A stretch of DNA of 62,828 bases, the filler included, from Malassezia furfur (lineage: Eukaryota), in assembly GCA_052055015.1 (NCBI GenBank). It is 4 parts of 4 records of this genome, joined end to end, with 100 filler letters (N's around TTAATTAATTAA, not from the genome) between each part and the next. Parts side by side here need not be neighbours in the genome. Positions count along the whole stretch, not along the records: positions 47,243 to 62,828 come from JBQJIT010000266.1; 3 more parts are not named here. One strand, 5' to 3'. The translations under genes and the position numbers were made by a program. This document shows, piece by piece, positions 15,682-62,828 of the stretch (position 1 is its first letter; each line of letters opens with the position of its first letter). The notes beneath the pieces were generated by a model. That model was not told the DNA's origin, searched no databases, and saw only the letters and a list, made by a program, of their open reading frames with translations.

Positions 15682-15781
15682 NNNNNNNNNNNNNNNNNNN
15701 NNNNNNNNNNNNNNNNNNNNNNNNNTTAATTAATTAANNNNNNNNNNNNNNNNNNNNNNNNNNNNNNNNNNNNNNNNNNNN
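15682..15781. other. Artificial contig-joining spacer (44 N + TTAATTAATTAA + 44 N)
   Basis: Six-frame stop linker flanked by N runs; the same 100-bp structure occurs three times. Confidence 0.97.
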
Positions 15782-21678: not shown

Positions 21679-22212
21679 TTACCTACGGCCCCGCCGGAGG
21701 AGCGACGTGACGAGGACGCCAGCGACGGTGGCGGCGCCGCCGAGGAGCGCCATGCCGATGTATCCCTCTGTGGGTCAGCGGTGTGCACGTACCCCGTGCA
21801 ATCCCCTTTTCGATCAGGGCGTTCAGGCTCTGGGCCTGCAGGTTGTTGGGCTCGCGCTCGAGGAGCAGGCCTGGATAAGCACGTGCACGTACTGTTGAAG
21901 CGCTTGGCCTCGTCAAAGTTGGACAGTTTGTAGTGCCCGAGGGAGAGGTAGTACAGGCACTCGCGCCGCCGCGGCGGGTCGGTGCGGTAGATGTCTGGCG
22001 TGAGTGGCGTGCGCGTGCGTACCGGTGAGGAGCGCGACGCCCTGGAGCATCTGCTGGCGGTCCTGGCTCTTGATCAGCGCCCACGCATAGTTGAACTTGG
22101 TCTGGGTAGTGATGTGCCCCGAGGCTGCCTCGGTGTCGTACTGATCGTGCAGCACCTGCAACTCGGCGGGGGAGAGGCTCGTCTGTGCGTCAACGACGTA
22201 CGGCAGCGTCAT
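21679..22212 (-). CDS. FIS1: Mitochondrial/peroxisomal fission protein Fis1; introns 21995-22022, 21871-21892, 21768-21792
   Basis: Motifs [58 protein letters not shown], and a C-terminal anchor [29 protein letters not shown]. Confidence 0.96.
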
Positions 22213-31417: not shown

Positions 31418-31517
31418 NNNNNNNNNNNNNNNNNNNNNNNNNNNNNNNNNNNNNNNNNNNNTTAATTAATTAANNNNNNNNNNNNNNNNNNNNNNNNNNN
31501 NNNNNNNNNNNNNNNNN
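31418..31517. other. Artificial contig-joining spacer
   Basis: 44 N + TTAATTAATTAA + 44 N. Confidence 0.97.
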
Positions 31518-42007: not shown

Positions 42008-43975
42008 ATGAGCGCGGCGCTCTCCCAAAAGCACGGGCATGCATCAAAAAAGACCGCGGCGGGGCGGCGGCAGCAGGGCGTGGTCAAGTCGCGCGGCATC
42101 CAGAAGGCGCCCGGGCGCGTCCAGCTGTGTGCCTTCTGCCTCGGCTCCGAAGAAGAAAACCGCGTCACGAAGCAGCCCGAGAAGCTCGTGATGTGCACCG
42201 AGTGCGGCAGCTGTGGTACGTTTTGGACACTGACACAGGCCACCCGTCATGCATGCGCTGGGACGCGGCGGGGAAAAAGGCAGCCATCGTGGAGACGTAC
42301 GACTGGCATTGCATGGAGTGCAAGACGTGTGAAGTGTGCCTTGACAAGGGCGACGACGAGCAGATCATGTTCTGCGACCAGTGCGACCGCGGCTGGCACT
42401 TGTACTGCCTGCGCCCGCCCCTCGCAAAACCTCCGCGTGGCATGTGGTATTGCCCGACATGCCAACAGGCGTCGACGCCGAAGCCGGCCAAGGGAAAGGC
42501 CGCACGTACGCCGCCTGCGCCGCGCGCAAATGAGTCGCCGCGGCCAGGCACGGTCGTGCGGCTACGCCGGCCAACGAAGGAGACGCGTCCGCGAAAGCGC
42601 ATCAAGGTTATGGAGCTGGAGGAAGAGGACGACGACGAGGAGGAAGAAGAGAGCGACGACGATGCCACAGCGGCGCCGGCTGAGGACGACGAACCATTTG
42701 CGGGGCTGCTGACCGGCGACGATGCCTTGACACACCTCAACGATCCCAACGCCGACGACATTGCGCGCTTCCGCAGTAGCAAACGCGCCGCCGAGGAGCA
42801 ATTGGGCGGCGCGGTGAGTATGCAGTCAGGCGCACTGGCGAGGCTGCCCCCGCGGGCGCAGTCGGTGGTGCGCGAGGAGCGGTTCACGAGCCCTGCGAGC
42901 ACGCACACGGACGACTCGCACGGCACGGCAACGAGCGACGCCAGCGTCGCACAGCCGGTGCGGATGATCCGATTCGGCAAGTTCGACATTGATACCTGGT
43001 TCCAGGCGCCGTTCCCCGAAGAGTACAGCTCAGTGCCCGGCGGGCGCCTGTGGATGTGCGAATTCTGCCTTAAGTACATGAAAAGCCGGTTCATGGCGAC
43101 GCGGCACCGGCTCAAATGCATCATGAGCTACCCACCCGGCCAGGAGATTTACCGCGCGGACAACATCTCGGTCTTCGAGGTGGACGGCAGCAAGGCCAAA
43201 ATCTACTGCCAAAACCTGTGCTTACTCGCCAAGCTGTTCCTCGACCACAAGACGCTCTACTATGATGTGGAACCCTTCCTGTTCTACGTGTTTGTCGAGA
43301 GCGACGCAACCGGCTCCCACTTCGTCGGCTACTTCTCAAAAGAGAAGCGCAGTCCAATGGACTACAACGTAAGCTGCATCATGACCCTGCCCGTGCACCA
43401 GCGGCGGGGATGGGGCTACTTTCTGATCGCCATGAGCTACCTGCTCTCACGCAAAGAGAAGCGGCTTGGCTCGCCGGAGAAGCCGCTGTCGGATCTCGGC
43501 TTCCTGACGTACCGCAGCTACTGGACGCTGGCAGTGTACCGCGTGCTGGCAAGTGCCTCGGATACGCTCACGCTCGAAGGTAGGTTGCGCGACTCACCCA
43601 GATCTTTGCGAGACGACGGGCATGAAAATGGAGGACGTGCTGTATACCCTGCAAGACCGCCACATGCTCGAGACCTTCCACAACGGCACGGAGCATGGGC
43701 GCCTCCCGCCTCAGTTCTTTACTGCTGCCGAGCACAATGCGAAGCCGGCGCGGCGGAGCACATCGGTGGAGCCGGTGGTGAACGACTACCGCCTCGTGTT
43801 TGACCACGCCGAGGTCCAGGCGTACGTCGACCGACACGACGCGAAAGCATACGTGCGCCTCGACCCCAGCAAGCTGCGCTGGACGCCCTTTTTGCTGACG
43901 CGACCGCGCGCAGCGCTCGACACGACCGACGCGGCCGCCTCGCTCGTAGAGCACGAGGCCAAGCCTCAGATGTAA
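42008..43975 (+). CDS. MYST histone acetyltransferase with N-terminal double PHD finger (Sas3/Mst2/KAT6-like); introns 42216-42238 and 43580-43601
   Basis: Double PHD: CAFC...[12 protein letters not shown]...[12 protein letters not shown]...[14 protein letters not shown]...[73 protein letters not shown]. Confidence 0.93.
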
Positions 43976-47142: not shown

Positions 47143-47242
47143 NNNNNNNNNNNNNNNNNNNNNNNNNNNNNNNNNNNNNNNNNNNNTTAATTAATTAANN
47201 NNNNNNNNNNNNNNNNNNNNNNNNNNNNNNNNNNNNNNNNNN
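47143..47242. other. Artificial contig-joining spacer
   Basis: 44 N + TTAATTAATTAA + 44 N. Confidence 0.97.
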
Positions 47243-48017
47243 GGCGCCGTGGCGGGCTCGGGGCGCAGCACCGGCGCCCGTCCCGAGCGAGCGGCGGCCG
47301 AGCGTGCAGATCGTCGACGCACGTGCGCCCGAGCAGGACGTGCGGCGCATCTCGGTCGCGGGCGACGCCCGCACCGTGCAGCCGCGCCCCATGCGTATGG
47401 AGCTGGATGACCGCCGCCTCGCGGTGCACGTCGGCGCCGTCGACCAGGCGGCGCTCACGACGCGCCCGCCGGAGGAGGTGATGCGCGACCTGTTCGAGGC
47501 GCTCTTCAGCATGGGTGTCGAGATGCGGCGCGCGCGTGATGCCGAGTTCCGCATCGAGTGTGTGCGTCCCAAGCGCCCGAGCGTGCTGCGCCAGCTCTTT
47601 TCGCGGAAGCGCGATCGCGACGAGCACGGCGGGCGGTGGCCCTCGCGTCTGGGGCGGCACCGCGCGCCGAGCGCGGCGGGTGCGCCGCGCGCCTCGTTCC
47701 AGCAGGAAGACGTGGACCGCGCCATGTCGCGCATGAGCATTGGCGGACTGCCGCCCAGTGGCACGGGGCTGTCGCGCCTGTCGCTGGACGAGCCGTACAT
47801 TGCGCCGCCGTCGTCCCCGCTGTACGGCGACGGCACGCGCGACGGCGGGCACGAAGTGCGCTTCTACGTCGAGCTGACCCGCATCCCGACCCTGCACGGG
47901 CTGTACAGCGTTGATATCCGCCGCATCAAGGGCAACTTGTGGTCGTACAAGTTTGTCTACCACGCGCTCCTCGAGCGCGTCGAACTCGGCGGCTCGATCG
48001 CTGCCCCACGTCGATAG
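47243..48017 (+). CDS. C-terminal KA1 domain of an AMPK-related Ser/Thr kinase (Kin4/Kin1/MARK-like), 5'-truncated by the gap
   Basis: Motifs VHVGAVDQAALTTRPPEEVM...FRIECVRPKR and EVRFYVELTRIPTLHGLYSVDIRRIKGNLWSYKFVY. Confidence 0.8.
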
Positions 48018-48170
48018 ACCTGCGCTGCGACGCACATGTAGTAGATCGGTGAAGGCGCTGCGCCACGGAGCGCAACGCACTTTTGGCCCCTGTCGCATTG
48101 CCCCTGCATTGTCTATGGATGCGTGTGCCACGGCACGGCAGTGCGGCGGCCGGCAGAACCCCTGTCCGCC

Positions 48171-49187
48171 TCACGCCGGCACATACGGCGGGCCCAACCA
48201 GCGGCGCGTCTGCTCGCTCACGGCCTCCACGACCAGTAGCAAGATGCCGCCGCCGGGCGCGAGGCGCAGCACCTTGGGCGCAAAGCCCTTGTACAGCGCA
48301 CGGAACCCCTCCTCGCGATAGATAAGCAGAATGCCCGTAAACGCGCCGCGGTACTTGGGCGTAACGCCCTTGACGCGGTCCACGTTCTGGATACGCGTCT
48401 TGACCACATCTGCGGGCGTGTTGAGCAGCGTGCCGACGAACCCGCCGACCGTGCCCGAGAGCAGGTTGTTGCGCATGCGCTCCCCGGCGGTGTGCGCCTT
48501 GGGCAGCACGCTCTGCATCTTGAAGATCGTCGCAAAGTATCCGCCGTTCCACAGGATGTGGCGCACCATGGTACTCCACAGGCCCGTGTACAGCCCCGTC
48601 CAGCCACACTGCTTCACGATTGTCCGCACCACATCCATCGGACCGTTGTAAAGGTGCGCCTGGCTGCGGTCCTGCAGGCGGATCTTGACCAGCTCAAACG
48701 GCACCACAATCAGCGACTCGGTCGCGCCCGCGGCACACCCCGTGAGCAGCGTCAGGCCCTGTGTCTTTTCTTTTTGGTTAAAGGCTTTGCGGAACGTCTT
48801 GCCCCAGAAGTCGTTCGCGCTGCACATGAGCACACACGACACCTACCCAAATTTCATCGCGCGTTTCGGCGCTTCCAGCACAAACAGCGGCCCAATTCCG
48901 CGGTACAGCCGCGAGACACTGCGTAAGCATACGATACACCCACCTCTCCTGCTGCATGATCTGCTTCAGCGTGTCCAAGGTGCCGCGATACTGCGGAGCA
49001 CTCGAATGGAGCTGCAGCTGCAGCCGCGTCTTGACCACATCTGCGATGAGCAGAGCACATACCCAGCGGATACAGACAGGCAAGCTCGACAATCCCGGCG
49101 AAAGCGCCCGCGCCGACCTGCACGTAGGTCGGGAGTGCTGCAACGTCAGTGCGTCCGGCAGCACCTACGCTTCACGTCGGTGGTCAT
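48171..49187 (-). CDS. ODC1: Mitochondrial 2-oxodicarboxylate carrier; introns 49138-49168, 49041-49062, 48919-48943, 48820-48846
   Basis: Spliced KPLPTYVQVGAGAFAGIVELACLYPLDVVKTRLQ, EAPKRAMKFG, VPFELVKIRLQ, RHILWNGGYF, NTPADVVKTRIQ, PKVLRLAPGGGILL (three carrier repeats). Confidence 0.93.
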
Positions 49188-49380
49188 CGTGCGGGCCCGA
49201 CCTGCCAATCGCCTCCACGCGCTTTCCAAACGCGATTTAACCCCACGTGGAATTTGCGCAGCGCGCGCTGCGCGTGCAGAAAAAAACCGCGTCCGGCCGA
49301 TACAACGGGCGCGCCAAGGAAAGCCCCACGGTTCGCCCCCCACCTTGCCCAGACACCGATCTATTCCATCTTGCATAGAG

Positions 49381-50922
49381 ATGGACAATCTCCTCGAACC
49401 ATACCCCAGGGAGGGTCAGGGCCGGACATGGGTCTCGCGCTTCTTCCCTAACTCGGACATCGCTGTCGCGCGCCGCGCCAAGTTCCTCGATGAGCAAGAT
49501 CAAAAGGAGATCAAAAACGTCCTCGACGATAAGGCGCCTAGCCTTCTCGGTGAGCCCGCACCGCCCGCGATCAAGCCGCCCACAACGGAGGAAGCCCTGA
49601 TCGTCGAGCAGATTAACGGAAACTTTATCGAGGAGGAAACCGAGCTGGAACCCAGCACGCTCGGCTGGATCGGCGCGTTCTGGAACATGATCGCGTACTC
49701 GATCGCGCTTGGTATCCTGAGTATCCCCCTCGTGGTCGCAACGATCGGTGTGGTGCCATTCATCCTGGTGTGTCTCTTCTTCTCGGCAATCACCTATTAC
49801 ATCGGCTACAACTACTGGCGCCTCTCGCTCATGTACCCTAACATCCATTCAATGCAGCAAGCTGGCGAACTGATCTTTGGGCGCTGGGGTGGTCTGCTGT
49901 TTACCACCATCCAAATTGTGTTCGGCGTCTTCCTCCAGGGCAACCATGCACTGCTCGGCGGCATTGCCTTCAACTACCTAGGCTGGCACTCGTGCATGGT
50001 CGCCCTGGTCGCCGTCTTCTCGGTCATCTCGTTCGTTTTTACCCTACCACGCTCCTACAAGATTTTTGCCTGGCAGGCAGCCATCTCGTTCACCTCCATT
50101 TTCACTGTGGTCATCATTGCGATGATTGCCAGTGGTGTGTCGGGGCCGGAGAACATGCAGCCGGGCGACCCGCCCAAGCGCCTGCTGGCCTTTGGCGCTA
50201 CTGAACAGGTGCCACACAACTTCCTCGATGGTATGCTGGGCGTCACCAACGTCTTTGTCAGTTTCGGCGCCACGCCGTCGTACCTTCCCGTCATGGCAGA
50301 AATGAAGGACCGGCGGTTGTTTATGCGGAGTATGAACCTGCTGGTGGGCATCTCCACCGTCCTCTACATCATCGTCGGATGCATCGTCAACTACAACCTT
50401 GGGCAATATACCAAGTCCCCGTCGCTCGGCTCACTTTCGCCCGTCATGATCAAAGTGTCTTACGGCCTGGCATTGCCCACCATCATGATCGCTGGCTGTG
50501 CCAGTGGTCAGGTCAACGCCAAGGTGCTTATGCGCAATGTGTTCAGCGGCTCTCGTCGCCGTTTGCTGAAAAAGCCCGTGATTTCCTGGACCGTGTGGAT
50601 CCTGATCAACCTCTGCACGTGGGCACTCGCGTTTGTGCTCGCCGAGGTGATTCCCTTCTTCAGCGCATTCCTGAGTCTGGAGGCCTCGCTCTTTTGGGCC
50701 TTCTTCCTGTTTCTCGCTCCTTTGTTCTACATCTGGCGCCACCAGTACGATTACTGGTCTACGATGCGCAACCGCATCGGGTTCGTGATTGCGCTCGGCG
50801 TCATTTGCGTGTCTACGTTCATGTGCATTGCCGGTACCTGGTCTGCCGCAGTCTCGATCAAGGACCAGTACAACAATGGCCAGGTTGGCCACCCCTTCTC
50901 GTGCACGGACGCGGGAGACTAA
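49381..50922 (+). CDS. Amino acid permease of the AAAP family (Mtr-like)
   Basis: About 11 hydrophobic segments; motifs LGWIGAFWNMIAYSIALGILSIP, PVMAEMKD, SPSLGSLSPVMIKVSYGLALP, LAEVIPFFSAFLSL. Confidence 0.88.
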   Translation: MDNLLEPYPREGQGRTWVSRFFPNSDIAVARRAKFLDEQDQKEIKNVLDDKAPSLLGEPAPPAIKPPTTEEALIVEQINGNFIEEETELEPSTLGWIGAFWNMIAYSIALGILSIPLVVATIGVVPFILVCLFFSAITYYIGYNYWRLSLMYPNIHSMQQAGELIFGRWGGLLFTTIQIVFGVFLQGNHALLGGIAFNYLGWHSCMVALVAVFSVISFVFTLPRSYKIFAWQAAISFTSIFTVVIIAMIASGVSGPENMQPGDPPKRLLAFGATEQVPHNFLDGMLGVTNVFVSFGATPSYLPVMAEMKDRRLFMRSMNLLVGISTVLYIIVGCIVNYNLGQYTKSPSLGSLSPVMIKVSYGLALPTIMIAGCASGQVNAKVLMRNVFSGSRRRLLKKPVISWTVWILINLCTWALAFVLAEVIPFFSAFLSLEASLFWAFFLFLAPLFYIWRHQYDYWSTMRNRIGFVIALGVICVSTFMCIAGTWSAAVSIKDQYNNGQVGHPFSCTDAGD

Positions 50923-51012
50923 ATGTCCTCATACACACCCTGTAGCCTGTTAATCTCCCCCATCGCCGCTCTTCCCCGCGGCGCTGCACCTCCACCTTTC
51001 TCCACCTTCGCC

Positions 51013-53014
51013 ATGGATGTCGGCAAGGCGGTCGCCGCATACATGGAGCGTATGGTCAAGGAGGTGCACGGCATGAAAATGCTGCTCCTTGACCAGTATA
51101 CGGTACGTTTTTTTGTTTGTTCATGAAGACGCCCACCATTTCTGCTTCGTTCACGCAGTCGGCCCTGCTGGAGAATGAAGTGTACCTCACCGACAAGCTT
51201 GAGAACGGCACGCGCGAGCGCATGCCGCATCTGCAGTGCATCGTATACGTGCGTCCGTGTGCCACGTCGATTCAGGCACTGTGTGACGAGCTGCAACACC
51301 CTCGCTACGGCTCGTACGCGCTGTGTATGTCACTCCGCTGACTCCAGACTTTAGCAACGTTGTTCCGAAGAATAGTATCGAGCAGCTCGCCGAGGCCGAC
51401 CAGCACCAACTCGTGCAGAACGTGCAGGAGTTCTTCACCGACTACGTCCCGGTCACTGCGTCGCTCTTCTCGCTGAATGAGTCGATTCCTCCGAGCGCAG
51501 TGTGGGGCAATGCCCTCACACAGTGGGACAGCGAGTCGTTTGCGCGGCACTCAGCGGGGCTCGTGTCGCTCCTGCTAAGCCTCAAGAAGAAGCCGGTAAT
51601 TCGGTATGAGCGCATGAGCGCGCTCGCCAAGAAACTCGCCGAGGACGTCACGTACCAAATGACCAACACGCAGGCGTCGCTCTTCGACTTCCGGCGCACC
51701 GATGTGCCACCGCTGCTCCTGATCCTCGACCGGCGCAACGACCCCGTGACACCGCTTCTGACGCAGTGGACGTATCAAGCGATGGTGCATGAGCTGATCG
51801 GTATCCACAACGGGCGCACGCAGCTTCCGCACGGCGAGGGCAAAGCAGAGGAGATTGTGCTGTCTGTGGACAATGACCCCTTCTTTGCGGCGAACTTGTA
51901 TGACAACTTTGGCGACCTGGGTGCGTCGATCAAGCAGTACGTCACACAATTCCAGTCGCGCTCGTCATCTGCGTCGTCGATCGAGACGATCCAAGACATG
52001 AAACGGTTCGTCGAAGAATACCCCGAGTTCCAGCGGCTGCGTGGCAACGTGTCGAAGCACGTTGCGCTCTTGGGGGAGCTCAGTCGGCTCGTGGAGGAGC
52101 GCGACCTGCTGCAGGTCAGCGAGCTCGAGCAGAGCCTCGCAAGCAACGAGAGCCACTCGTCCGACCTGCGCAACGTGCAGAACCTGCTCGGCTCGAACAA
52201 GATCGGGCATGACGCTAAGCTGCGCCTCGCCATTCTGTACGCGCTGCGCTATCAAAAGTGGTCCGGCAATCAGATTGACGCGGTGGTGCGCCAATTGATC
52301 AATGTCGGTGTCCCCGAGAACCAAGTCGTACTGGTGTATGTGATGCTCAACTTTGCGGGCGCCGAGCAGCGCCAGGACGACCTGTTTGCCAACGAGAACC
52401 TCTTTTCGCGCGGGAAGAGCGCGCTGAAGGGCCTCAAGGGGGTGGAAAACGTGTATACCCAGCACTCCCCGCATCTCCTCGAGACACTCGACCACCTGAT
52501 GCACGGTCGCTTGCGCACGTCGAGCTACCCCTTTGCCGACGTGGAGCCGACCGCGGCCGATGGTGCGCCCGCGACGCTCTTCCCTAGTGGGCCGACGACG
52601 CGGCCACAGGACGTGATTTTGTTTGTGATTGGCGGCACGACCTACGAGGAGGCGCGCAGCATCGCACTGCTCAACGGCGCGCCCTCGGGCAGCGGTGTGC
52701 CCTCGCAGCCGACCTGGCCGGGGACGCGTTTCCTCCTCGGCGGCACAACCGTCCACAACGCGCGCTCGTTTTTGGACATGGTGCAATACACCGCGTCGCG
52801 GCTGCCCACAAACATCACGCGCCCGCCGCCGTCGGTAGGCGACGCAGGCCTGCATCTGAGGCTAGGGCCAATGCAGCTCAACGTCGGTGCAGGGCATGCG
52901 CCCTCGCGCGAGCTCGGCGAAGGGCTCGGCGATGTGGCGAACAACGCGCGCGAGTTTGCCTCGGGGCTGTTTGGCCGCGTCATGCGTAGCGTCGACAACG
53001 CCTCGTTCCAATAG
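51013..53014 (+). CDS. VPS45: Sec1/Munc18 family protein Vps45; introns 51103-51128 and 51325-51347
   Basis: Motifs GMKMLLLD, TQSALLENEVYL, LSLKKKPVIRY, LLILDRRNDPVTPLLTQWTYQAMVHEL, NVSKHV, LKGVENVYTQH, IGGTTYEE. Confidence 0.96.
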
Positions 53015-53018
53015 CTAC

Positions 53019-53899
53019 CTACTCTTCTGCGGGATCTTCAAGTTGCCATGCGGGGATGGACGGCGCGGCGCGCGGCGCAGGGGGCGCCTTTTCACCCTCG
53101 TTCGTGTTCTCCGAGGAGGACGCGGGCTGCGCTGCCAGGCCGCCGCGCGACACGACCAACGAGCGCAGCGACTTGAGCTCGCCCTGCAGGTCAGTCAGTG
53201 CCGAAATCTGCGACTTGCGCGAGCGGTTCAGCATCGAGGTAAACTCTTCGCGCATCTCCTCGACCTCGGCTTTGACCTTTTCGAAGTCCTTCTCGCGCTG
53301 CTCTTCGCGAGTGCGAACCTGCTCGATCATCTCATTGACGCCTGCAACACTCTGCTGGATGGCCGTCTGGTGCTCGTCGAGGCCCTGGCGGATCGCCTCG
53401 GTGGTCTGGTCGAGCTCTTCGAGGTGGAGCGCGACCTCATCGTACTTGGCTGTAAGCTCGTCACGCTCGGCCTCGAGCACGGTCTGGTTCGGCGGCTGCA
53501 TGTGCGGGTACAGGTATCGCTGCGTGAGTTGTGCCGACATACTCGTGCGAGGCCAAAGAGACCATAACCAATCGTGCCGGACACCACGGCCATGATGAAC
53601 CAGTCACGCCAGTCGCGCCGCGGCGGTTGCACAGGTGGATATGCAGGCATCATGGGGTATGGGCTCGCGTACTGCGACGAAGAGGGCGCCCCTGGGGGGC
53701 GCGACGCCTGCGCAAGGGCCATGTCGACCTCCTGGGGCGTCAGCCCCTTGGACTCCAAGAAGCTGATCCGCTGCGAAATGGGAGAGTCTTGCACCTTGGG
53801 ATCGGCCAGGAATGACACCGCATTCTGGATCATCTCGGGACGCGGCATTGCGGGGACAGTTGCATGCCCCGGTGCGTCCGGCGCATTGGGATCCGCCAT
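53019..53899 (-). CDS. PEX14: Peroxisomal docking protein Pex14; intron 53520-53542
   Basis: Pex14_N motif AVSFLADPKVQDSPISQRISFLESKGLT, RDWRDWFIMAVVSG, coiled coil ELKSLRSL, tail PSIPAWQL. Confidence 0.95.
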
Positions 53900-54175
53900 A
53901 CTGCGTGGGTGCGAAGCCGGGGGCCGGGCACGTGACGTAGTGTCGCCGGGTGTGCAGAAGTTTTCCCCCACCGACCACGACAGCGGTACGTGTGCTTGGT
54001 GCAGACAACCACTAGGATTACACTTTTATTCACACTGTCTGAGCCTGACAAGGCGGTGACGGTGATTTCTCAAAAACTACAACGGTATATGAGTGGTTGT
54101 CTGCACCTTTCTTTGGTGTTCAGTCGCTAACTTTTTAGGTGCCACGGTTTCTGGGCTCGGCGCCCTTTTGTAGCG

Positions 54176-54664
54176 ATGGCGAACGCCCCGGACCGCTTCA
54201 ACCTCTTCCTCCTCCAGCCGGGGGAGAGGCGCATTGAGGTGCAAGAGGATATGCGTATCCCGAACGCGGCCACTTTTTACTTCAACAAGGAAGACCATAC
54301 CCTTGGCAACATGATCCGGCATGCCGTCTTGTCGCTTCCAGGCGTGCTCTTCTGTGGGTACAAGGTGCCCCACCCACTTGAGCCCCGTGTTCTGGTCAAG
54401 ATTCAGACCGACGGGAGCTTGACGCCGGCCGAGGTGCTGCAGCAAGCATGCACCAAGCTGATCGTAAACATCGGCACCCTGAAGCAGAGCTGGGCCAAGG
54501 AGCTGCGCCTCAGTGCCGACACCGGGCGCGTGGATGGCGGCGCATACGGATCACAGCTCTGGAATGCCTACGGGGGCGCGCCGGATGTCGCACCCGTTGC
54601 TGCGGACCCGTACGCTGGCGACGGAGACCGTGGAACCGGTATGGGTGGATATGTAGATATCTAA
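54176..54664 (+). CDS. RPB11: RNA polymerase II subunit Rpb11
   Basis: Motifs NAPDRF, FNKEDHTLGN, GYKVPHPL; short Gly/Tyr-rich C-terminal extension. Confidence 0.96.
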   Translation: MANAPDRFNLFLLQPGERRIEVQEDMRIPNAATFYFNKEDHTLGNMIRHAVLSLPGVLFCGYKVPHPLEPRVLVKIQTDGSLTPAEVLQQACTKLIVNIGTLKQSWAKELRLSADTGRVDGGAYGSQLWNAYGGAPDVAPVAADPYAGDGDRGTGMGGYVDI

Positions 54665-54999
54665 TGTACACTATGATGCAACACGACTTGCACGCGAGTA
54701 TGGACGCCAATGTTGCCCGGTTGTGGATTTGCGTCGTACGGGCGGGCATGCCCGCGAACGTCGTAGTGCGTCTGGCGCCTTGGCCAAAAAGTGGCCCAAA
54801 TTAGCTATACGGCCAAATACCCCTCTCGATCACAGCGTCAGGTTATGCTCACGAATCCATACGGCCAAATATGTGCTGCACTCGAGTCCTATGCGAAATG
54901 TATTACGCCTAAACCGTTACTGTCCAAAATACAACCCTATTCCGAGCCTTGACGCCGCAAGGCCATAACAATTGAGGAGTGGGAGGAAGGAATATTATA

Positions 55000-56961
55000 T
55001 TAAGCAAGGCCACTCTTTTCGTTGCCAGGGTTGGTCTCGGTCGCAAGCGTCCGCGGGGCTGCCTCGGCTTCCTCGATCTCATGACGGTGCTTCTCGTCCT
55101 CAGCGGCATCAATGTTGAAAGTGACCAGCTCGTCCGCCTTGCGGTCGAGCTTGTAGAAGGTCAACCAGAACAGCACACCACCGACGAACGACAGGCCCGC
55201 AAACACACCGTAGTTCACCACGAACAGCGGGTTGGCCGAGAGTGCGACAAAGGCCTCGCCGATCGCAGCGGCAATGGCAGTCGTAAAGGTACCGATGGCC
55301 ATCACAATCGAGCGCATGTTCTTGGGAGCCATGATCATGGCCACCTCCATCGACACGATCGAGGCAAACATCTCACTCAGCGCAACGAGCACATAGGGGC
55401 CCGCCTGCGCCCACACGTTGATCGAGGCATAAGCGTTGGAGCAATCGATCTCCGAACCATCCGGACCCGTGATGGTGATTTCATCACCCACGTGCTTGCC
55501 ACACGGGTTCTTCTGGTAAATGTAGTGCTGCAGCACCGCGGCCCAAATCATCGAGGCACACACGAAGAAGAAGCCGACCGTGATGCGCTTGATGGGGGTG
55601 AAGGGAATGCGGTAGCGGTCAACCAGCGGGTATACGACGAGGTTGAGCAGGAAGCAGAACACGATACAGAAGATTGGGTCAAGCTGGCTGACCAGCTCGT
55701 TGGGCGAGCCGTCAAGGTCCATCTGGAGGGCCTGCGTGAGAAGCGGACCGGTCATCTGGTTGTAGCAGACCCAGTACAGCGGGAAGTAGACAAAGATGGC
55801 GCACGCCTTCACACCACAGTTCAGCTCGTCGACCCAGGTATCGGTGTACTTCATCCACTTGGGCTTCTCGCCCTGCACCATCGACGGCTTGGCCACGTCC
55901 CAGTAGTGCGAACTGGCACAGTTGCGCGCAAACTGCACCGGGTTCCAGCTCCATGCTGCCTTGATCGCACGGCCCCAGGCACGGGCGGCCGTAACCAGAA
56001 CCGAGCCCTGCGGAGGCACACTGACGTAGTAGTTACGGCCGAACCAGAGCACAGGAATCGGCAGCAAGAAAACAAGCGTAGGCAGCAGGTATGCCAGCCA
56101 GTAGCCGACATTCTTCTCCGCATAGATCATACCCAGCTGGCCTGCGAGCGATCCAATGTTAATCATCGCATAGTACCACACGTAGATACGGGCAGTGGTC
56201 AGCGCGGGGTCGATAATGACCTGTTCACCGCTCTTCAGCTTCACCACCGTCTGCTCCTTGACCTTCATCTGCTCGGCGACCAGCACGGCACAACTCGACT
56301 TAAAGACACCAGTACCGGTTCCCATGACCACCAAGGCGATAATAAAGCACGCCTTTGCACCCTCGTTGTCCGCCATCACGCCCGGGATACCAGAAATCAC
56401 CAGTAGAATGTGGCCAATCTGGGCAATCAGCACACCCCAGCAAATCGTTTTGAAACGGCCCAAGTACGAGTCAGCCACCCAGGCCGCGAAAAGCGGGGTG
56501 ATGTAGCACCAGAACATGTTGAAGGTCACCAGACCCGTTGACGCACGCGATCCCATGCCGAGCGCACCAGGGTGCAGATTGTCCCCGTTGAGGTTGTTTG
56601 TCGCACCCGTACGCGACACTTTACCCGTAATGGCGTCCACCGGGCGCGAGTTCTTAATGAAGTTGTTGTAGACCTGCGTGGCACCATAGTAACTAAAGCG
56701 CTCCGCAAACTCGCAAATACCAATAGCAAAGGTGGGGAAGTTGATCTTCTCCGGGACACGACGAAGCGTGTTGCGCTCCTCTTCCGAGGGGAAGTGCCAG
56801 TCGACCACATCGTCGTCAACCTTGCGGCCATCGGTGAGGTGGGTCAGCGCAGGGGGCAGGATCTCCTCCTTGCCAGCCTCTTGGAGGTGATGGTCGTAGA
56901 TGGCATGGTCGGCGGCCATCCCGCCGACCATACCCGCGTCGTAGGTCGATTCAACAGGCAT
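55000..56961 (-). CDS. PTR2: POT/PTR family di-/tripeptide transporter
   Basis: Motifs CEFAERFSYYG (ExxER), ADSYLGRFKTI, GTGVFKS, YYAMINIGSL, YWVCYNQM, APKNMRSIV. Confidence 0.95.
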   Translation of the reverse strand: MPVESTYDAGMVGGMAADHAIYDHHLQEAGKEEILPPALTHLTDGRKVDDDVVDWHFPSEEERNTLRRVPEKINFPTFAIGICEFAERFSYYGATQVYNNFIKNSRPVDAITGKVSRTGATNNLNGDNLHPGALGMGSRASTGLVTFNMFWCYITPLFAAWVADSYLGRFKTICWGVLIAQIGHILLVISGIPGVMADNEGAKACFIIALVVMGTGTGVFKSSCAVLVAEQMKVKEQTVVKLKSGEQVIIDPALTTARIYVWYYAMINIGSLAGQLGMIYAEKNVGYWLAYLLPTLVFLLPIPVLWFGRNYYVSVPPQGSVLVTAARAWGRAIKAAWSWNPVQFARNCASSHYWDVAKPSMVQGEKPKWMKYTDTWVDELNCGVKACAIFVYFPLYWVCYNQMTGPLLTQALQMDLDGSPNELVSQLDPIFCIVFCFLLNLVVYPLVDRYRIPFTPIKRITVGFFFVCASMIWAAVLQHYIYQKNPCGKHVGDEITITGPDGSEIDCSNAYASINVWAQAGPYVLVALSEMFASIVSMEVAMIMAPKNMRSIVMAIGTFTTAIAAAIGEAFVALSANPLFVVNYGVFAGLSFVGGVLFWLTFYKLDRKADELVTFNIDAAEDEKHRHEIEEAEAAPRTLATETNPGNEKSGLA

Positions 56962-57297
56962 CGCGTGAGGAGTGACCGTGGGGAGGGAACAAAAAGGCTG
57001 AGCTATTTTAACTGCTGAGTGACAAACTGTCTATCTCAAGATGGCCATATTTGTTATCACGGCCATTACTGGACCATCTGCTGCGGCTGAGATTTAAACC
57101 ACTGGGGTGCTGCATTTCATGTTTTCAGGAGTTGTCAGCATCGTGGCCGCTTGATGCGCGTACATGCAAGTGGTTTCGATTAAGACCAATACTTGATAAG
57201 CCAAAATTGCTCGTAGCACCCTAGATAAGGGTAATACTACGAATGCGGGTGCTGGCACGGGATATATAGCTCCAATAGGGCAATATATCCAAGCGAA

Positions 57298-57406
57298 GGG
57301 CATGTGGTCTAGTGGTATGACGTCTGCTTCGCATCAAATCTGCGACTGAATCGACTTCAGTGTTCGAATCAGCAGAAGGTCCCGGGTTCAAATCCCGTCT
57401 TGTCCA
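57298..57406 (+). tRNA. tRNA-Ala(CGC) with a 37-nt intron at the canonical 37/38 position (copy 1)
   Basis: Acceptor stem GGGCATG/CTTGTCC with the G3:U70 alanine determinant, A box TGGTCTAGTGG, anticodon stem TCTGC/GCAGA around TTCGCA, B box GGTTCAAATCC. 72 + 37 = 109 nt. Confidence 0.95.
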
Positions 57407-57407
57407 C

Positions 57408-57412
57408 TTTTT
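57408..57412 (+). terminator. Pol III oligo-T terminator of tRNA copy 1
   Basis: TTTTT one base after the discriminator A. Confidence 0.75.
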
Positions 57413-57640
57413 GCCGCGCTCACATTCCTACTCCATCATCTGCGTATTTTTTCTCGTTTCAAATAGTCTCCGTCGTAGCACGGCTGCCCTGTACACTCTT
57501 TTTCTTGGCTTGGAGCCCAACCCAACATGAGAAGCAAGTGTCTTTCGCCTTTCTCACACCGTTACGTCTGCCGGACACCTTCGACGTCCGGATGGCCAAC
57601 ACACAGATGAGGCTTTTGCGGAAACGCGAATCGAGATCGG

Positions 57641-57749
57641 GGGCATGTGGTCTAGTGGTATGACGTCTGCTTCGCATCAAATCTGCGACTGAATCGACTT
57701 CAGTGTTCGAATCAGCAGAAGGTCCCGGGTTCAAATCCCGTCTTGTCCA
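57641..57749 (+). tRNA. tRNA-Ala(CGC) with a 37-nt intron (copy 2, identical to copy 1)
   Basis: 109-nt sequence identical to 57298-57406, including the intron. Confidence 0.95.
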
Positions 57750-57750
57750 C

Positions 57751-57757
57751 TTTTTTT
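57751..57757 (+). terminator. Pol III oligo-T terminator of tRNA copy 2
   Basis: TTTTTTT directly downstream of the tRNA. Confidence 0.8.
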
Positions 57758-57890
57758 GGCCCCTCGCCCAGGCGCTCTCCCGGTGTAGCTTGTCAAGGAA
57801 CTTTGCGCTACGCTGCCAATTGTCGAGAATCATACTTCTCACTTCTCTGGCATACAGAATCAATCCTTGGCCTTCATCGAAACGAATACA

Positions 57891-59376
57891 CTAGAAGCGG
57901 CTACGTTCGTCATAGTTGCGCGAACCACGCACCGGCGACCGCTCGCGGTGCCCGCCCGATCCACTGTTGGATGAGCGCCCACGCGGGTCATCTGTCTGTT
58001 GGTTCCCACCCCGGCTGCCCCATCCGGACGCATTCGAGTCGCTGCCTCCCGCAGCATTCCCGGCGCCAGCGCCGCTGTATGCGCGCATGTAGGCAGCCGC
58101 GGCGTTGTTGGCGTTGGCCCCACCTGCTGCAGCGCCGCCCATCGCGGCCGGGTTCCAGCCGCCCTTAGACGCGGCGCCACCCATATATGCCGTCATCATC
58201 TGCTGCCAAACCATTTGTGGGTTCCACGCCGAGCTGCCCCAGCCCATTTGCTGGTACATCTTGGCCATGGCCTGCGGGTCGAAACCGCCCGCGCCACCTG
58301 CAGCGCCACTGGCGCGCCCAGCGTCTGCTGCCGGTGCGCCCCAGGCACGCAAAGGTGCCTGGCCGCGCCCCGCGGCGTCGTTCGCGCCGCTGCTGAAGCG
58401 GTTCGGTTGCGCGTTGGGTGCCGGCTGACCGCGCGACTGGGCGCGCTTTACCTCGATCTGCTTCCCGTCGAGCATGAGCGGCTGATTTGCGAGCGTGCGT
58501 TCGACGCCGTCGTCACTTTCAAATGTCACAAAGCCGAACCCACGCGGCCGACCGGTGTCCTTGTCCATCATGACGGTACTGTCCAAGACGTGCCCAAACT
58601 GCTGGAAGAGCTGCTTGAACGAGTCTTGGGTGACGGTCTGCGGCAGGCCGCCGACAAAGCACTTTTGCGTCTTGGACTGTTCTGGCCGCGGGATGGCGCG
58701 CTTTGGATCGATGATCTTGCCGTCCAAGAAGTGTTCGCGGACCATCACGGCGTTGACCGATTTGGGGTCCGAGAAGGTGACGAACGCGAATCCGCGCGAG
58801 CGGCCCGTCGACCCGTCGCGCATGACGGTGCATGCACTCACTGGCCCAAACTGGCCGAAGTACTTGCGAAGGCTCTCTTCGGTGGTGTCCCAGTTGAGAC
58901 CGCCGACAAACATTTTACTTTACATGTGTTAGTCCCTGTATGCGAATCGGATGCTGTAGGATGCACACGTCTACCCTTGGATCATTGTGACGTGGGCCTA
59001 CCGATACCTCTCTGGACGCTAAGCTGCTCGCTCTCTGACTACCGACAGCGCTCGCCTGTCGTCTATCCCTGCGCGACGTGTGCATCCCTGCGGCCACTCA
59101 CCCTTCATCCGGAAGATCCTGCGGCGCCACATGCTCGCCACGCGCCGCAGCGGCCGTGCGCTCCTCGGCAGACTCCATCAGCGGCGGCGCTACGGAAGGC
59201 GTGGCTGCCACGCCGGGGATGAAGGAGCCGCTTGCCGGCGCTGCGGGCACGGATGCGGGCGCTGGCGCAGGCACAGCTGGCGCGGCGGCCGGCTGCGCCT
59301 CGGCCTTGGGCGTCGCATCGGCTTCCTCGCCGTAGAGGTCTGCGTACAAGTCGCCGGCCTCGTCTGCTTTCGACAT
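57891..59376 (-). CDS. HRP1: Two-RRM RNA-binding protein (Hrp1/Nab4, hnRNP A/D, Musashi-like); 184-nt intron at 58918-59101
   Basis: Exon 1 MSKADEAGDLYADLYG...PDEG is spliced to KMFVGGLNWDTTEE, RSRGFAFVTF, HFLDGKIIDPKRAIPR, KCFVGGL, RPRGFGFVTF, IEVKRA, then a Gly/Met/Gln-rich tail. Confidence 0.88.
58959..59087 (-). repeat. Perfect 13-bp inverted repeat inside the HRP1 intron
   Basis: GGATGCACACGTC (58959-58971) and GACGTGTGCATCC (59075-59087) on the + strand. Confidence 0.9.
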
Positions 59377-59515
59377 GGTTGTACAGAAAACGCGTGGGTC
59401 CCGTTGCGCCCGCTGACTAAACATCGGGGCGGGGGCACGGAGCCCCGATGGGGTGCGTGGGGGAGACGCTGTGTTGCGCGGCTTCGTGGCATGCTCGCGT
59501 GAACGGCGGTGCGCC

Positions 59516-62500
59516 ATGTCCCAGCCGTTGTCGCAGCCAAGCGCTGCGTCATCTGCCCAGGCGAAGCGGGGAGTGACAGATGGAGATATATACGTGTATA
59601 CGCTGCAGACTGCGTACCTCGCGCACCTCGTGGCGCAGACCCAGGCGGCCAAGGCGCCCGTGACGCGTCCGCCCGCGCCACGGCGATCGTCAGACAGCCG
59701 CATGAACCTGGCGGAGCGTGTGCGTGAGCTGAAGCTGAGTGCTGCGCCGATGCGCCAGGCGCGCTTCCCCGAAAAGTTTGTGCGTAAATTGCTCGAGCGG
59801 CTCGAGCGGATCGCCATGGGCCGCGACGCGCACTTCCACGCACCCCTCTTTCGGCAGACGATCGGCGCATTTTATGGCACGGCGATGGATTCAGCCACGG
59901 TCAAGAGCCTCAAAGAGAACCGCAGCGTTGAGGAGTTGCTGCTGCTCTTTTTCAACGACGCACAGACCTCGCTGAAGAAGAGGGTGCCCGACGAGGCGGA
60001 GCGCCGCGCGGAGCTCGAACGCGAGATCACGCTGTTTGCGCGCGTGGTGCGCGAGACGTTGGCGAGCGTCGGTGCGACGTCGCGCGAGCTGGGCGAGCGC
60101 GTGGACGAGTCGACGCAGATGCTTGTGTCATCGCTGCAACGCTCCGCGTCGGAGCCCGATTTGCCGGTCGACGTGGACGCGGCATCGTCGCCATTGGTGC
60201 AGGCCGTGGGCCACCTGTTTGGCGTACATGGCGAGCAGCTGGCGCTGGACATTGACTCCATCCGCCCACTGTCGACGCTGGCCGCCGGCATGCTCGATTT
60301 GAAGCGGTGTGTGTATCGCATCCATGCGCAGCAGGCGTGGCCCGCGGCGCCGGACGACTTTGCGTCGCCCAGTGAGTACAAGACATGGCGCTCCAGCGAA
60401 CTACATGCGCTGTCGCAGATGATGGTCGCGATGTGCGAAGCTCAGCCCGACCTGCTCAGCACGCCGACGGCCGGCGACAGTCTGGCGGCGGGGCGCATGC
60501 CGCGCGCTTCGACCGAGCTCAGCACGCCTGAACTGGGCGACGGCGACGAGGACGGCGAGATGACGTTTGTGCCGCCGGACACGCATGCCGCATACCAGCG
60601 TGTGCTGGAGCGATGCATCGACGTGGATTTGGACGCAATCCGGCAAAAGGCTGAGGACGAGGAGGTATCGCTGGCGATCCTGAGCGCTGTGCATATGCGC
60701 CTGCTGGACGTGTGTGCGGAGCGGTGGCGTATCGCGCGCCCCTTTCGTGTGCTGGCGAACCTGCGCACGATCAAGACGCGCTTCGACTGCGGCGAGGTGC
60801 CCATGGAGTGCGTGCAGCAGTCGCTCGAGCGTGTTACGCAGCTCGTGCACGAGTCTGACCCCGCGGCGTGGCGGCGGCAGGAGCGCAATGCGATGCGCCG
60901 GGCCCTCGACTCGCTCGCCGACACGCTGCTGCGTAGTGTCTATGCGCAGTTCCAGGCGGTGGACGAGGCCAACATGGACGAGCTGCGGCCGACGGTGGCC
61001 CTCGTGGAGCAGATCGAGCCGTTGGCCGCGGCGGTGGGCGGTGGGCCGCGTGCAGACGCTGCGGCGAAGCAGCTGCCCGAGCTGCATGAGGCGCTGCGCA
61101 TCAGTGCGATCCAGAGCTACACGGCCAAGACGGCCGAGGTGCTGGGCGGCGAGTCGGTGCGCCTGCTGGATGCGTGTACGCAGCTGCTTGACTTCATCCA
61201 CGCCAAGGTCAAGGAGCTCGACCGGAAGTTCACGGCGCCTATCCTGTCGGTGTCGCCGGTGGATGTGGTGATCCAAAAAGTTGTGCCGCTGTACCTTGAT
61301 GACCTCGAGTCGATGCGTGAGAGTGTGCTGGCGCAGGTGGTTGCGAGCGACGCGATCGAGGACGTGGACGATGCGCTGGCGCTGTGGGAGCGCGTGCGTG
61401 CGCTCATGGCGCTGTACGATGCGACGCGGCCCGCGCAGCCGCTTACCTTCCACGTGCGGCGGTGGTTTGCGCCGTACGTGGAGCGCTGGCTTGCGCTCAC
61501 CGAGCGCCGCGCATCGCAGTGGGTGCAGAATGCGCTGCATGTCGACACGTTTGAGCCGATGGGCGATGGCGCCGAGCACAGCACGTCGATCCGTGACCTG
61601 TCCGACGCGCTTGAGCAGCCGCTTGCGGTGCTGCAGGGCCTCGCGTGGCCAGACGCGTACGAGCAGGCGTGTTTCTATACGATGCTTGCCAAGAGCTATG
61701 GCCGGCTGATCGAGGAGTACTGCCGCGCGATCGAGGACCTGTACATGGCCGAGATGCTGCCGGCGCCCGCGGAGGCCACGTCCACGCCCGTGCTGGGCGG
61801 TCTGCTCGACACGCCGTTTGCGGCCGAGTACGTCGCGTCGCTCCCGCCCAAGCAGGCGGCGTGGGTCGCCAAGGCGAAGCAGACCATCGCCGGCGAGAAA
61901 AAGGTGCAGCCGTTCCTCTTCCAGACGCAGTCGTGCGTCAAGCTGAACAACATTGAGGCCGCGCGCCGCCTGCTCGATGCGCTCTACCGGCGCATGGACG
62001 CCGATCGGCAGGCGCGCATCGTCGCCGAGCACCTGCGCACGGCCGACGAGGCGGATGCGTCGGTGGTCAGTGTGGACGAGCGTGCGCCGCTGCACTACCT
62101 GTTCACCGTCAAGGTGGTCCAGGCGGAGTTCGACGCAGGCATGGCCGACACTCCGGGCGAGCGCATGGCCGCGCGCCTCGACACGTTCGTCACGCTCAGT
62201 GACGAGCAAGGCGAGCGGCTCGCCAAGACGCGCACGATCTACGACCGCGCTCAGCCGCGCTGGGACGAGGTGTTTGACATCCCCGCCACCGCGCTGCTGT
62301 GGGTGTCGGCGACCGTGTGGCGCCGGCAGTTTGGGCACGAGCCGAGCCTGCTGGGCCGCGCGCCGCTGCGCCTCGACCCGCGCTTGTTTTGCGACGAGAA
62401 TGCGCACGAGGTGTGGCTCTCGCTCGACAGCGGGGGCAAGCTGCTTGTGCGCATCAGCATGGAGGACGCGCACGACGACATCCTGTTCCACTTTGGCAGC

Positions 62501-62828
62501 GCGTTCCGTGTGCTGAAGCGCGCGGGCGTCGACATGGTGCGTGTGCTGGTGGACCACATCTCGCTGTTCATGCGCCAGTTCCTCTCGCGCTCCGTCGTGC
62601 GCTCGCTTGTGCGCGGCGGGCGCGTGAATTTGGACCGCGCACTGGGCAACGTCAAGGCGCTGTATGCTTCGGCGCTCGCACAGGCCAACGGCACTGCGAC
62701 GCTCATCCCACCCGTCGACACTGAGCGGCGACGCGCGGGCACACTGAGCGACCAGGAGATCGAGGCAGCGATTGTGCCGCTGCTCGACTACTTTGAGGTG
62801 ACGCTCGGCACGCTCAAGAGCAGCCTGA
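59516..62828 (+). CDS. Fungal Munc13-homology/C2-domain protein (Ync13/Git1/YOR296W-like); runs off the window end
   Basis: The frame from ATG 59516 stays open to the window end, so it is absent from the ORF track. Motifs IYVYTLQTAYLAHL, RFPEKF, HSTSIRDL, CVKLNNIEAAR, C2 domain LFTVKVVQAE..DTFVTLSDE..AKTRTIYD..PRWDEVFD, DILFHFG, PLLDYFE. Confidence 0.85.
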   Translation, partial: MSQPLSQPSAASSAQAKRGVTDGDIYVYTLQTAYLAHLVAQTQAAKAPVTRPPAPRRSSDSRMNLAERVRELKLSAAPMRQARFPEKFVRKLLERLERIAMGRDAHFHAPLFRQTIGAFYGTAMDSATVKSLKENRSVEELLLLFFNDAQTSLKKRVPDEAERRAELEREITLFARVVRETLASVGATSRELGERVDESTQMLVSSLQRSASEPDLPVDVDAASSPLVQAVGHLFGVHGEQLALDIDSIRPLSTLAAGMLDLKRCVYRIHAQQAWPAAPDDFASPSEYKTWRSSELHALSQMMVAMCEAQPDLLSTPTAGDSLAAGRMPRASTELSTPELGDGDEDGEMTFVPPDTHAAYQRVLERCIDVDLDAIRQKAEDEEVSLAILSAVHMRLLDVCAERWRIARPFRVLANLRTIKTRFDCGEVPMECVQQSLERVTQLVHESDPAAWRRQERNAMRRALDSLADTLLRSVYAQFQAVDEANMDELRPTVALVEQIEPLAAAVGGGPRADAAAKQLPELHEALRISAIQSYTAKTAEVLGGESVRLLDACTQLLDFIHAKVKELDRKFTAPILSVSPVDVVIQKVVPLYLDDLESMRESVLAQVVASDAIEDVDDALALWERVRALMALYDATRPAQPLTFHVRRWFAPYVERWLALTERRASQWVQNALHVDTFEPMGDGAEHSTSIRDLSDALEQPLAVLQGLAWPDAYEQACFYTMLAKSYGRLIEEYCRAIEDLYMAEMLPAPAEATSTPVLGGLLDTPFAAEYVASLPPKQAAWVAKAKQTIAGEKKVQPFLFQTQSCVKLNNIEAARRLLDALYRRMDADRQARIVAEHLRTADEADASVVSVDERAPLHYLFTVKVVQAEFDAGMADTPGERMAARLDTFVTLSDEQGERLAKTRTIYDRAQPRWDEVFDIPATALLWVSATVWRRQFGHEPSLLGRAPLRLDPRLFCDENAHEVWLSLDSGGKLLVRISMEDAHDDILFHFGSAFRVLKRAGVDMVRVLVDHISLFMRQFLSRSVVRSLVRGGRVNLDRALGNVKALYASALAQANGTATLIPPVDTERRRAGTLSDQEIEAAIVPLLDYFEVTLGTLKSSL

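Follow-up and report, generated by a model that had tools for sequence, protein, structure and literature searches.

A predicted zipper-like stem in an oversized intron of conserved position in an HRP1-like gene of Malassezia furfur

A 184-nucleotide (nt) intron in an HRP1-like gene of Malassezia furfur carries a perfect 13-base-pair (bp) long-range stem, GGATGCACACGTC/GACGTGTGCATCC, which loops out 103 nt between the donor and the branch site. The gene was found in a stretch of 62,828 nt (assembly GCA_052055015.1), hereafter the window, which is made up of four pieces of about 15.6 kb and holds the gene in the last of them (47243-62828). We propose that the stem is a zipper stem on an oversized and ancient intron and that it may aid splicing, a reading that is based on folding models and that we regard as evenly poised between right and wrong. 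An ancient intron, fixed just before the KMFVGGLNW of the first RNA recognition motif (RRM1), would have stayed about eight times longer than its neighbours; the 13-bp stem would work as a zipper stem, and a spliceosome accustomed to very short introns could then reliably pair the two sites. The stem would thus promote splicing, and the need for it would be general to long introns, not special to HRP1.

The coordinates of the gene are given in Table 1. Exon 1 encodes a low-complexity N-terminus ending ...PQDLPDE-G(G) (DNA ...CCG GAT GAA GG), which is conserved in four orthologous loci (L001-L004, described below) and in annotated Malassezia proteins. Past the intron the frame reads (GG)T AAA ATG TTT GTC GGC GGT CTC AAC TGG, that is G-KMFVGGLNW, in which KMFVGGLNW is the RNP2 motif of the first of two RRMs, so that the intron divides the N-terminal exon from RRM1. 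Its removal restores the conserved frame and yields a spliced open reading frame of 433 amino acids. The donor GTGAGT stands at 59101, the acceptor AAG ends at 58918, and the tail of the intron is ACTAAC-N7-AAG, with ACTAAC 29 nt 3' of the stem and 10 nt from the 3' splice junction. All of these details (GTGAGT, GACTAAC, AAG and the length of 184 nt, on the minus strand) agree with the original prediction, and by the sequence of its donor, branch site and acceptor and by its frame the intron classes as a U2-type GT-AG spliceosomal intron.

Annotated relatives point to the same junction. The closest named proteins are those of M. yamatoensis (82% identity), of M. vespertilionis, M. pachydermatis and M. 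cuniculi (71-73%) and of M. obtusa (98%, a partial match), and remoter matches are named 'heterogeneous nuclear ribonucleoprotein HRP1' or 'musashi/CF I complex subunit HRP1'. The peptide PQDLPDEGKMFVGGLNW spans the inferred junction in all but one of the five Malassezia models; those of M. yamatoensis, M. vespertilionis, M. cuniculi and M. pachydermatis read ...PQDLPDEG/KMFVGGLNW exactly over it. The M. obtusa model (P0022) uses another junction, leaves out some 25 residues ahead of KMFVGG and has a foreign, membrane-protein-like tail (Pfam PF00854) at its C-terminus; it looks, from its sequence, like the product of a mis-splice and a gene fusion caused by the long intron.

The intron had been described as about eight times the median length, and the comparison with its surroundings bears this out, the other recognisable introns of the window being 22-28 nt long and typically of the form GTACGT...CT[CGA]AC...CAG. 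The list of short introns is heuristic, drawn from reading frames and recognised protein motifs with no transcripts; examples are those at 14073-14097, 38041-38065 and 43580-43601 (+) and at 21995-22022 (-). Many of them have CTCAC as their branch-like motif, beside CTGAC and CTAAC. In the curated annotation of M. sympodialis the mean intron size is 30 bp (PMC5389616, Table 2). Automatic intron finding over-calls long introns by passing over real short exons. Inspected by eye, one candidate long intron at 20753 turned out to be a single short intron and another, at 21768-21892, two short introns flanking a small exon, whereas two more, at 7102 and 8443, could not be resolved in this way. The genes at 20753 and 21768-21892 are presumably NOSIP-like and Fis1-like.

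The stem starts 14 nt from the donor and closes 41 nt before the acceptor. CGCAGGGAT occurs at intron nt 10 and again at nt 29, and the two copies of GCATCC start at nt 138 and 148; these repeats, the perfect 13-bp stem, its loop of about 100 nt and the inner hairpin were all recovered where the original prediction had placed them. In the minimum free energy (MFE) fold the stretch of the inner hairpin pairs otherwise, so that GACAG-GCGAGCG-CTGTC is only one alternative. The fold of the whole intron reaches -69.5 kcal/mol, compared with -53.6 +/- 3.9 kcal/mol for dinucleotide shuffles (z = -4.07; none of 200 shuffles as good), and a perfect long-range repeat of 13 bp was reached in none of 300 shuffles, the longest in these being 10 bp. 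Whether the intron is folded by itself or with 60 or 150 nt of exon on each side, no pair of the stem falls below a predicted probability of 0.997; the helix of the stem is worth -23.8 kcal/mol, and alternative pairings extend over only 6-7 bp. In these models, whether judged by MFE shuffles, by repeat-length shuffles or by pair probability, the structure exceeds chance expectation. The 5' splice site is buried in the predicted fold (unpaired probability 0-0.22) and the ACTAAC branch motif is mostly unpaired. Retention of the intron, as had been claimed, leads to a stop (GGG TGA), and so does the use of internal acceptors, each of the 21 internal AG sites giving a premature stop by residue 142.

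We then searched the 62.8 kb for perfect inverted repeats whose arms are 10-400 nt apart. The two longest are a 16-bp repeat (53998/54092) and the 13 bp of the HRP1 stem; local shuffles give about 0.9 repeats of at least 13 bp and 0.025 of at least 16 bp per window. Just two long introns were recognised in the window, and each holds one of these repeats, starting 12-14 nt past the donor; the chance of both landing there if randomly placed is about 3e-5. The second, a candidate long intron in the 5' untranslated region (5'UTR) of an unrelated RPB11-like gene, has the same clamp geometry.

The RPB11 intron reads, in order, GTACGT, 12 nt, the stem, a 78-nt loop, the stem, 22 nt, GCTAAC and TTTTTAG (fold z = -4.13). 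Its loop matches the box C/D small nucleolar RNA (snoRNA) family snR79 (Rfam RF01184) with 34 bits and E = 8e-4, below the gathering score of the family (55), and the boxes are degenerate, with AGGAUUA as the C-like and AUGA as the D-like box. Matches to snR79 lie also upstream of RPB11 in two of the orthologous loci (L002:2455-2539, minus strand, 37.8 bits; L001:4835-4921, minus strand, 26.4 bits). The window and L002 have a near-identical snoRNA core, UGAUUUCUCAAAAACUACAACGGUAUAUGA included. The stems around it have no sequence in common and are both perfect (GGTGCAGACAACCACT, 16 bp, in the window and CGTCGGCTGGCATCC, 15 bp, in L002), and the stem in L001, a third one of about 19 bp, is imperfect. 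On these sequences the RPB11 stem is evidently the external stem of a hosted snoRNA, selected for pairing only, and its wholesale replacement around a conserved snoRNA cleanly illustrates selection that acts on pairing and on nothing else.

Orthologues of the HRP1-like gene were sought by a metagenome scan with the RRM1-RRM2 peptide, which gave the four loci L001-L004, of 92-94% protein identity. L003 and L004 differ at 5 positions in 3567 nt, too few to inform on constraint, which leaves three independent orthologues. All have an intron at the identical codon, of 589 nt in L001, 157 nt in L002 and 159 nt in L003 and L004, whose introns are identical. All of these introns are of the form GTGAGT...AG, with a clear CT[AG]AC branch motif in L002 and L003/L004 and only a weak CTTAC in L001. 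In distant fungi exon 1 and the donors could not be located, so that the acceptor side only was compared; in 16 of the 16 loci inspected an AG acceptor stands directly before (K)MF[IV]GGLNW, and a branch-like motif lies close to it. Since the acceptor is at the same place in all of them, the position of the intron is, as far as sequence can tell, old.

The introns of the relatives also pair their two ends, with sequences of their own. The MFE folds of the L001-L003 introns all contain a long-range helix running from just past the donor to just before the branch site. In L003 this includes a perfect 11-bp stem, GCACGTCCGGG/CCCGGACGTGC, a length that 1 of 300 shuffles attained or surpassed; in L002 the clamp comprises about 16 bp, G-U pairs among them, and has a bulge, and the intron of L001 (L001:1923-2511), a relative of lower GC content, is nearly all taken up by a single long, imperfect hairpin, with a fold of -206.6 kcal/mol. 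When the best duplex between the 5' and the 3' half of each intron was compared with 500 dinucleotide shuffles, p was 0.010 for the window, 0.078 for L002, 0.014 for L003 and 0.002 for L001, values which combine by Fisher's method to 2.4e-5, or to 2.2e-4 without the window intron. No 10-mer is common to the HRP1 introns of the window, L002 and L003, so that the stems are unrelated and the loop is not conserved. Since the four introns are essentially unalignable (37% mean column identity in a multiple alignment), analysis of covariation is not meaningful. A loose block of about 90 nt is common to the introns of L001 and L002 and absent from the window and L003; it includes the branch-like GGTAGCTCAC, which looks like a decoy or former branch site, because CTCAC serves as a branch-like motif in many short introns.

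The position of the stem can be compared with the definition of zipper stems in budding yeast, with linkers of at least 10 nt and at least 20 nt that total 42-85 nt (PMC12350175). The window intron, with 13 bp and linkers of 14 nt and 29 nt (43 nt in total), falls within these bounds, as does that of L003 with 11 bp and linkers of 29 nt and 23 nt (52 nt), the linkers of the orthologues being read from predicted folds. The bounds were modelled on the budding-yeast A complex (PMC12350175) and may not transfer to Malassezia. Zipper stems are described as poorly conserved in sequence and hosted snoRNAs as conserved (PMC12350175), and the HRP1 and RPB11 introns present the same contrast.

Several results weigh against a zipper stem. 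The linkers of L002, 10 and 18 nt (28 nt in total), fall short of the yeast bounds; its longest perfect stem is of 6 bp, a length reached in 52% of shuffles, and whole-intron z values are not significant in L002 (-0.11) or L003 (-1.16), that of L001 being -2.62. The 5' splice site's distance from the branch site in the MFE fold is not below that of shuffles (17 compared with a mean of 10.1 in the window, 20 compared with 12.8 in L002). A dedicated stem may be needless for proximity, because random GC-rich RNA of such size is also predicted to join its ends. Variants of one yeast zipper stem, that of RPL28, are reported to have lowered the fraction of retained intron (PMC12350175), so that such stems are not always helpful. 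The RPB11 stem has another reason to exist, as it flanks a snoRNA, which makes 'two of two' a tiny and confounded sample. Finally, splicing, retention and formation of the stem in the cell are at present matters of prediction. Of the earlier idea that a long intron must fold to be spliced, what stands is a real intron at a conserved position, its excess length, a stable stem placed like a zipper stem and the relatives' own pairing; that the stem promotes splicing is what we infer from these.

The alternative that fares best, which we nevertheless consider unlikely, is that the stem has no selected function. The perfect repeat would then be a recent mutational by-product (for example an inverted duplication or a template switch) or the relic of a small inverted-repeat element, and the length of the intron would have unrelated or neutral causes. 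A perfect stem without a counterpart of similar sequence in the relatives fits such a young origin. A 19-nt partial tandem duplication, with CGCAGGGAT at nt 10 and nt 29, overlaps the 5' arm; L002 has no significant clamp, and random sequence of this composition already brings its ends together. Against it stand the excess of 5'/3' complementarity, which recurs independently in the orthologues also when the window is left out, and the matching location, within long introns, of both top inverted repeats of the window. The arm has no further copy without mismatch in the window, where seven near-matches with one or two mismatches bring the total to 9 compared with 3.45 expected, and none occurs in 80 loci; neither a target-site duplication nor another flanking duplication was seen at the HRP1 stem. 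A miniature inverted-repeat element would be expected in multiple copies per genome and with a target-site duplication; the count of copies given here covers the window and the 80 loci.

That the intron hosts an unrecognised small RNA, with the clamp as its external stem, and that the clamp serves assembly or processing of a ribonucleoprotein and not splicing, seems to us quite improbable, in spite of two suggestive parallels: the RPB11 intron, the second of the two long introns recognised in the window, shows the same architecture around its snR79-like snoRNA, and conserved intron positions in intron-poor fungi, M. sympodialis included, have been tied to hosted snoRNAs (PMC8476143). The Rfam scan, which was to reveal a hosted snoRNA, did so in the RPB11 intron and gave no match in the HRP1 intron of the window at E up to 10. 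The introns of L001-L003, at E up to 5, gave only a weak match to a long non-coding RNA model in L003 (14.1 bits, E 0.29), which we read as chance, and the 16 distant fungal loci none at E up to 0.05. A relaxed search for C/D boxes returned no candidate in any of the four HRP1 introns and recovered the RPB11 snoRNA as positive control. For a box C/D snoRNA, the HRP1 intron lacks a C box (RUGAUGA) and D box (CUGA), a conserved core and a family match. For a box H/ACA snoRNA, the 14 nt upstream of the stem leave no room for a 5' hairpin, and an ACA 3' of the stem, looked for by eye, occurs only in the copy of the window and not in L002 or L003. The HRP1 loop is not conserved between species, whereas the core of the RPB11 snoRNA is near-identical in the window and L002.

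About equally improbable, in our judgement, is the switch of the original prediction, in which the Hrp1 protein or competing folds would open and close the clamp and an excess of Hrp1 would send its own pre-mRNA to retention or mis-splicing and decay. The very old position of the intron would suit such a switch, and so would its having been kept long in all four Malassezia-like species though their genomes shrink introns to about 25 nt. The buried 5' splice site, the early stops from retention and from every internal AG, and the alternative registers permitted by the duplicated CGCAGGGAT and the second GCATCC are also of the kind expected, and the literature discusses attenuation as a means by which budding-yeast HRP1 regulates itself. 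Premature stops are however trivial, being expected of any non-coding insert, the alternative pairings are far shorter than the 13-bp helix, and the same clamp geometry is found in the intron of an unrelated gene. No sequence block is common to the window, L002 and L003 as a candidate binding site. UAUA is absent from all four HRP1 introns (window and orthologues), and UAG/UAGG, taken as binding sites of the type known for heterogeneous nuclear ribonucleoproteins (hnRNPs), are not above dinucleotide shuffles; the preference for (UA)n is that of budding-yeast Hrp1 (PMC12458251) and may not be that of the Malassezia protein. Neither these motifs nor strong intronic conservation, as expected of an autoregulatory poison isoform, were seen in the intron, and a switch specific to Hrp1 finds no support here.

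A zipper stem that aids splicing remains the reading we prefer, and it can be taken further, in a form that we hold to be possible but on the whole doubtful. Any Malassezia intron much longer than the usual 22-28 nt would have to be closed by a long, near-perfect clamp, whether it hosts a snoRNA or not; the clamps would be replaced wholesale between species, not by single compensatory changes, perhaps via inverted duplication or template switching; and the HRP1 intron, ancient across fungi, would be among the few long ones kept for a regulatory reason, its clamp setting the efficiency of splicing. The lasting length of the HRP1 intron in every relative is the strongest residual argument for a regulatory or hosted function. 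If this is true, the rare long introns would bear a readily recognised structural signature, which would be useful in annotation, where a long intron is a trap, as the M. obtusa model of the HRP1-like gene seems to illustrate. Full-text literature searches found no description of such stems in Malassezia, and a paper on intron retention in fungi (PMC8476143) contains neither 'HRP1' nor 'secondary structure'.

Some further features of the window may be recorded. Just downstream of HRP1 lie two transfer RNA (tRNA) matches, at 57298-57406 and 57641-57749 (+), each of 109 nt and 47.6 bits, inside a tandem duplication with a period of 343 bp; both are probably intron-containing, and ARAGORN in bacterial mode found neither. 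L001, L002 and L003 have one tRNA each at the place matching this pair. About 84 nt (53902-53986) separate the donor of the RPB11 5'UTR intron from the start codon of a divergent gene, presumably PEX14-like from an N-terminal motif recognised by eye, a tiny space that has to hold the shared promoter and the 5' ends of both genes. The window is a composite, with N44-TTAATTAATTAA-N44 linkers at 15682-15781, 31418-31517 and 47143-47242, across which adjacency is artificial; the GC content of the four pieces is 0.667, 0.662, 0.668 and 0.619.

Table 1. Features of the HRP1-like gene and of the RPB11 intron, in positions of the window
Feature	Position	Strand	Remarks
Exon 1, HRP1-like gene	59102..59376	-	275 nt, ATG at 59376; from translation
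Intron, phase-2 GT-AG, 184 nt	58918..59101	-	GTGAGT...ACTAAC...AAG; same codon in L001-L004
Predicted stem, 5' arm GGATGCACACGTC	59075..59087	-	intron nt 15-27
Inner hairpin GACAG-GCGAGCG-CTGTC (one alternative)	59044..59060	-	intron nt 42-58, within 103-nt loop
Predicted stem, 3' arm GACGTGTGCATCC	58959..58971	-	intron nt 131-143
Branch-site motif ACTAAC (within GACTAAC)	58928..58933	-	intron nt 169-174
Exon 2, HRP1-like gene	57891..58917	-	RRM1, RRM2, G/A/N/Q-rich tail, stop codon
RPB11-like 5'UTR intron, 153 nt	53986..54138	+	GTACGT...GCTAAC...TAG; orthologues in L002, L001
RPB11 intron, 16-bp perfect stem	53998-54013 / 54092-54107	+	encloses snR79-like snoRNA
snR79-like box C/D snoRNA	54010-54094	+	Rfam match

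The HRP1 intron can be set beside four known systems. With autoregulatory unproductive splicing of the hnRNP or SR type it has in common a gene for an RNA-binding protein, a long intron at a conserved position and stops on retention. Autoregulation of that type is marked by strong conservation within the intron or by motifs that the encoded protein binds; in the HRP1 intron, unlike these systems, both were looked for and not found. Introns hosting C/D snoRNAs, here that of RPB11 (RF01184), have like HRP1 a long perfect stem from 12-14 nt past the donor, and the stems of both close 20-30 nt before the branch site and enclose about 80-100 nt. Unlike a hosted C/D snoRNA, the HRP1 loop is without C/D boxes, conserved guide, Rfam match or conservation across species.

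The 'Type B' introns of Giardia, a protist with a reduced spliceosome, are, like that of HRP1, the longer introns of a short-intron lineage and are predicted to be stably folded, and the folding has been proposed to bring the splice partners together (PMC10711314). Giardia and Malassezia are unrelated lineages, and the Giardia introns, which are without recognisable branch motifs and have been compared with trans-splicing (PMC10711314), differ from the HRP1 intron with its canonical GTGAGT, ACTAAC and AG. The zipper stems of Saccharomyces cerevisiae (RPS17B and others) offer a further parallel, in that a stable helix reaching from past the 5' splice site to before the branch point leaves the greater part of a long intron in its loop (PMC12350175), as the HRP1 stem is predicted to do. 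Background introns are of 22-28 nt in the window and of 80-500 nt in S. cerevisiae (PMC12350175), so that the host spliceosome would already handle distances between 5' splice site and branch site well below the yeast minimum. Compared with the yeast zipper stems that of HRP1 is longer and perfect, at 13 bp, and it is a predicted one. As reported for yeast (PMC12350175), the sequence of the stem is little or not conserved between species and the motif recurs.

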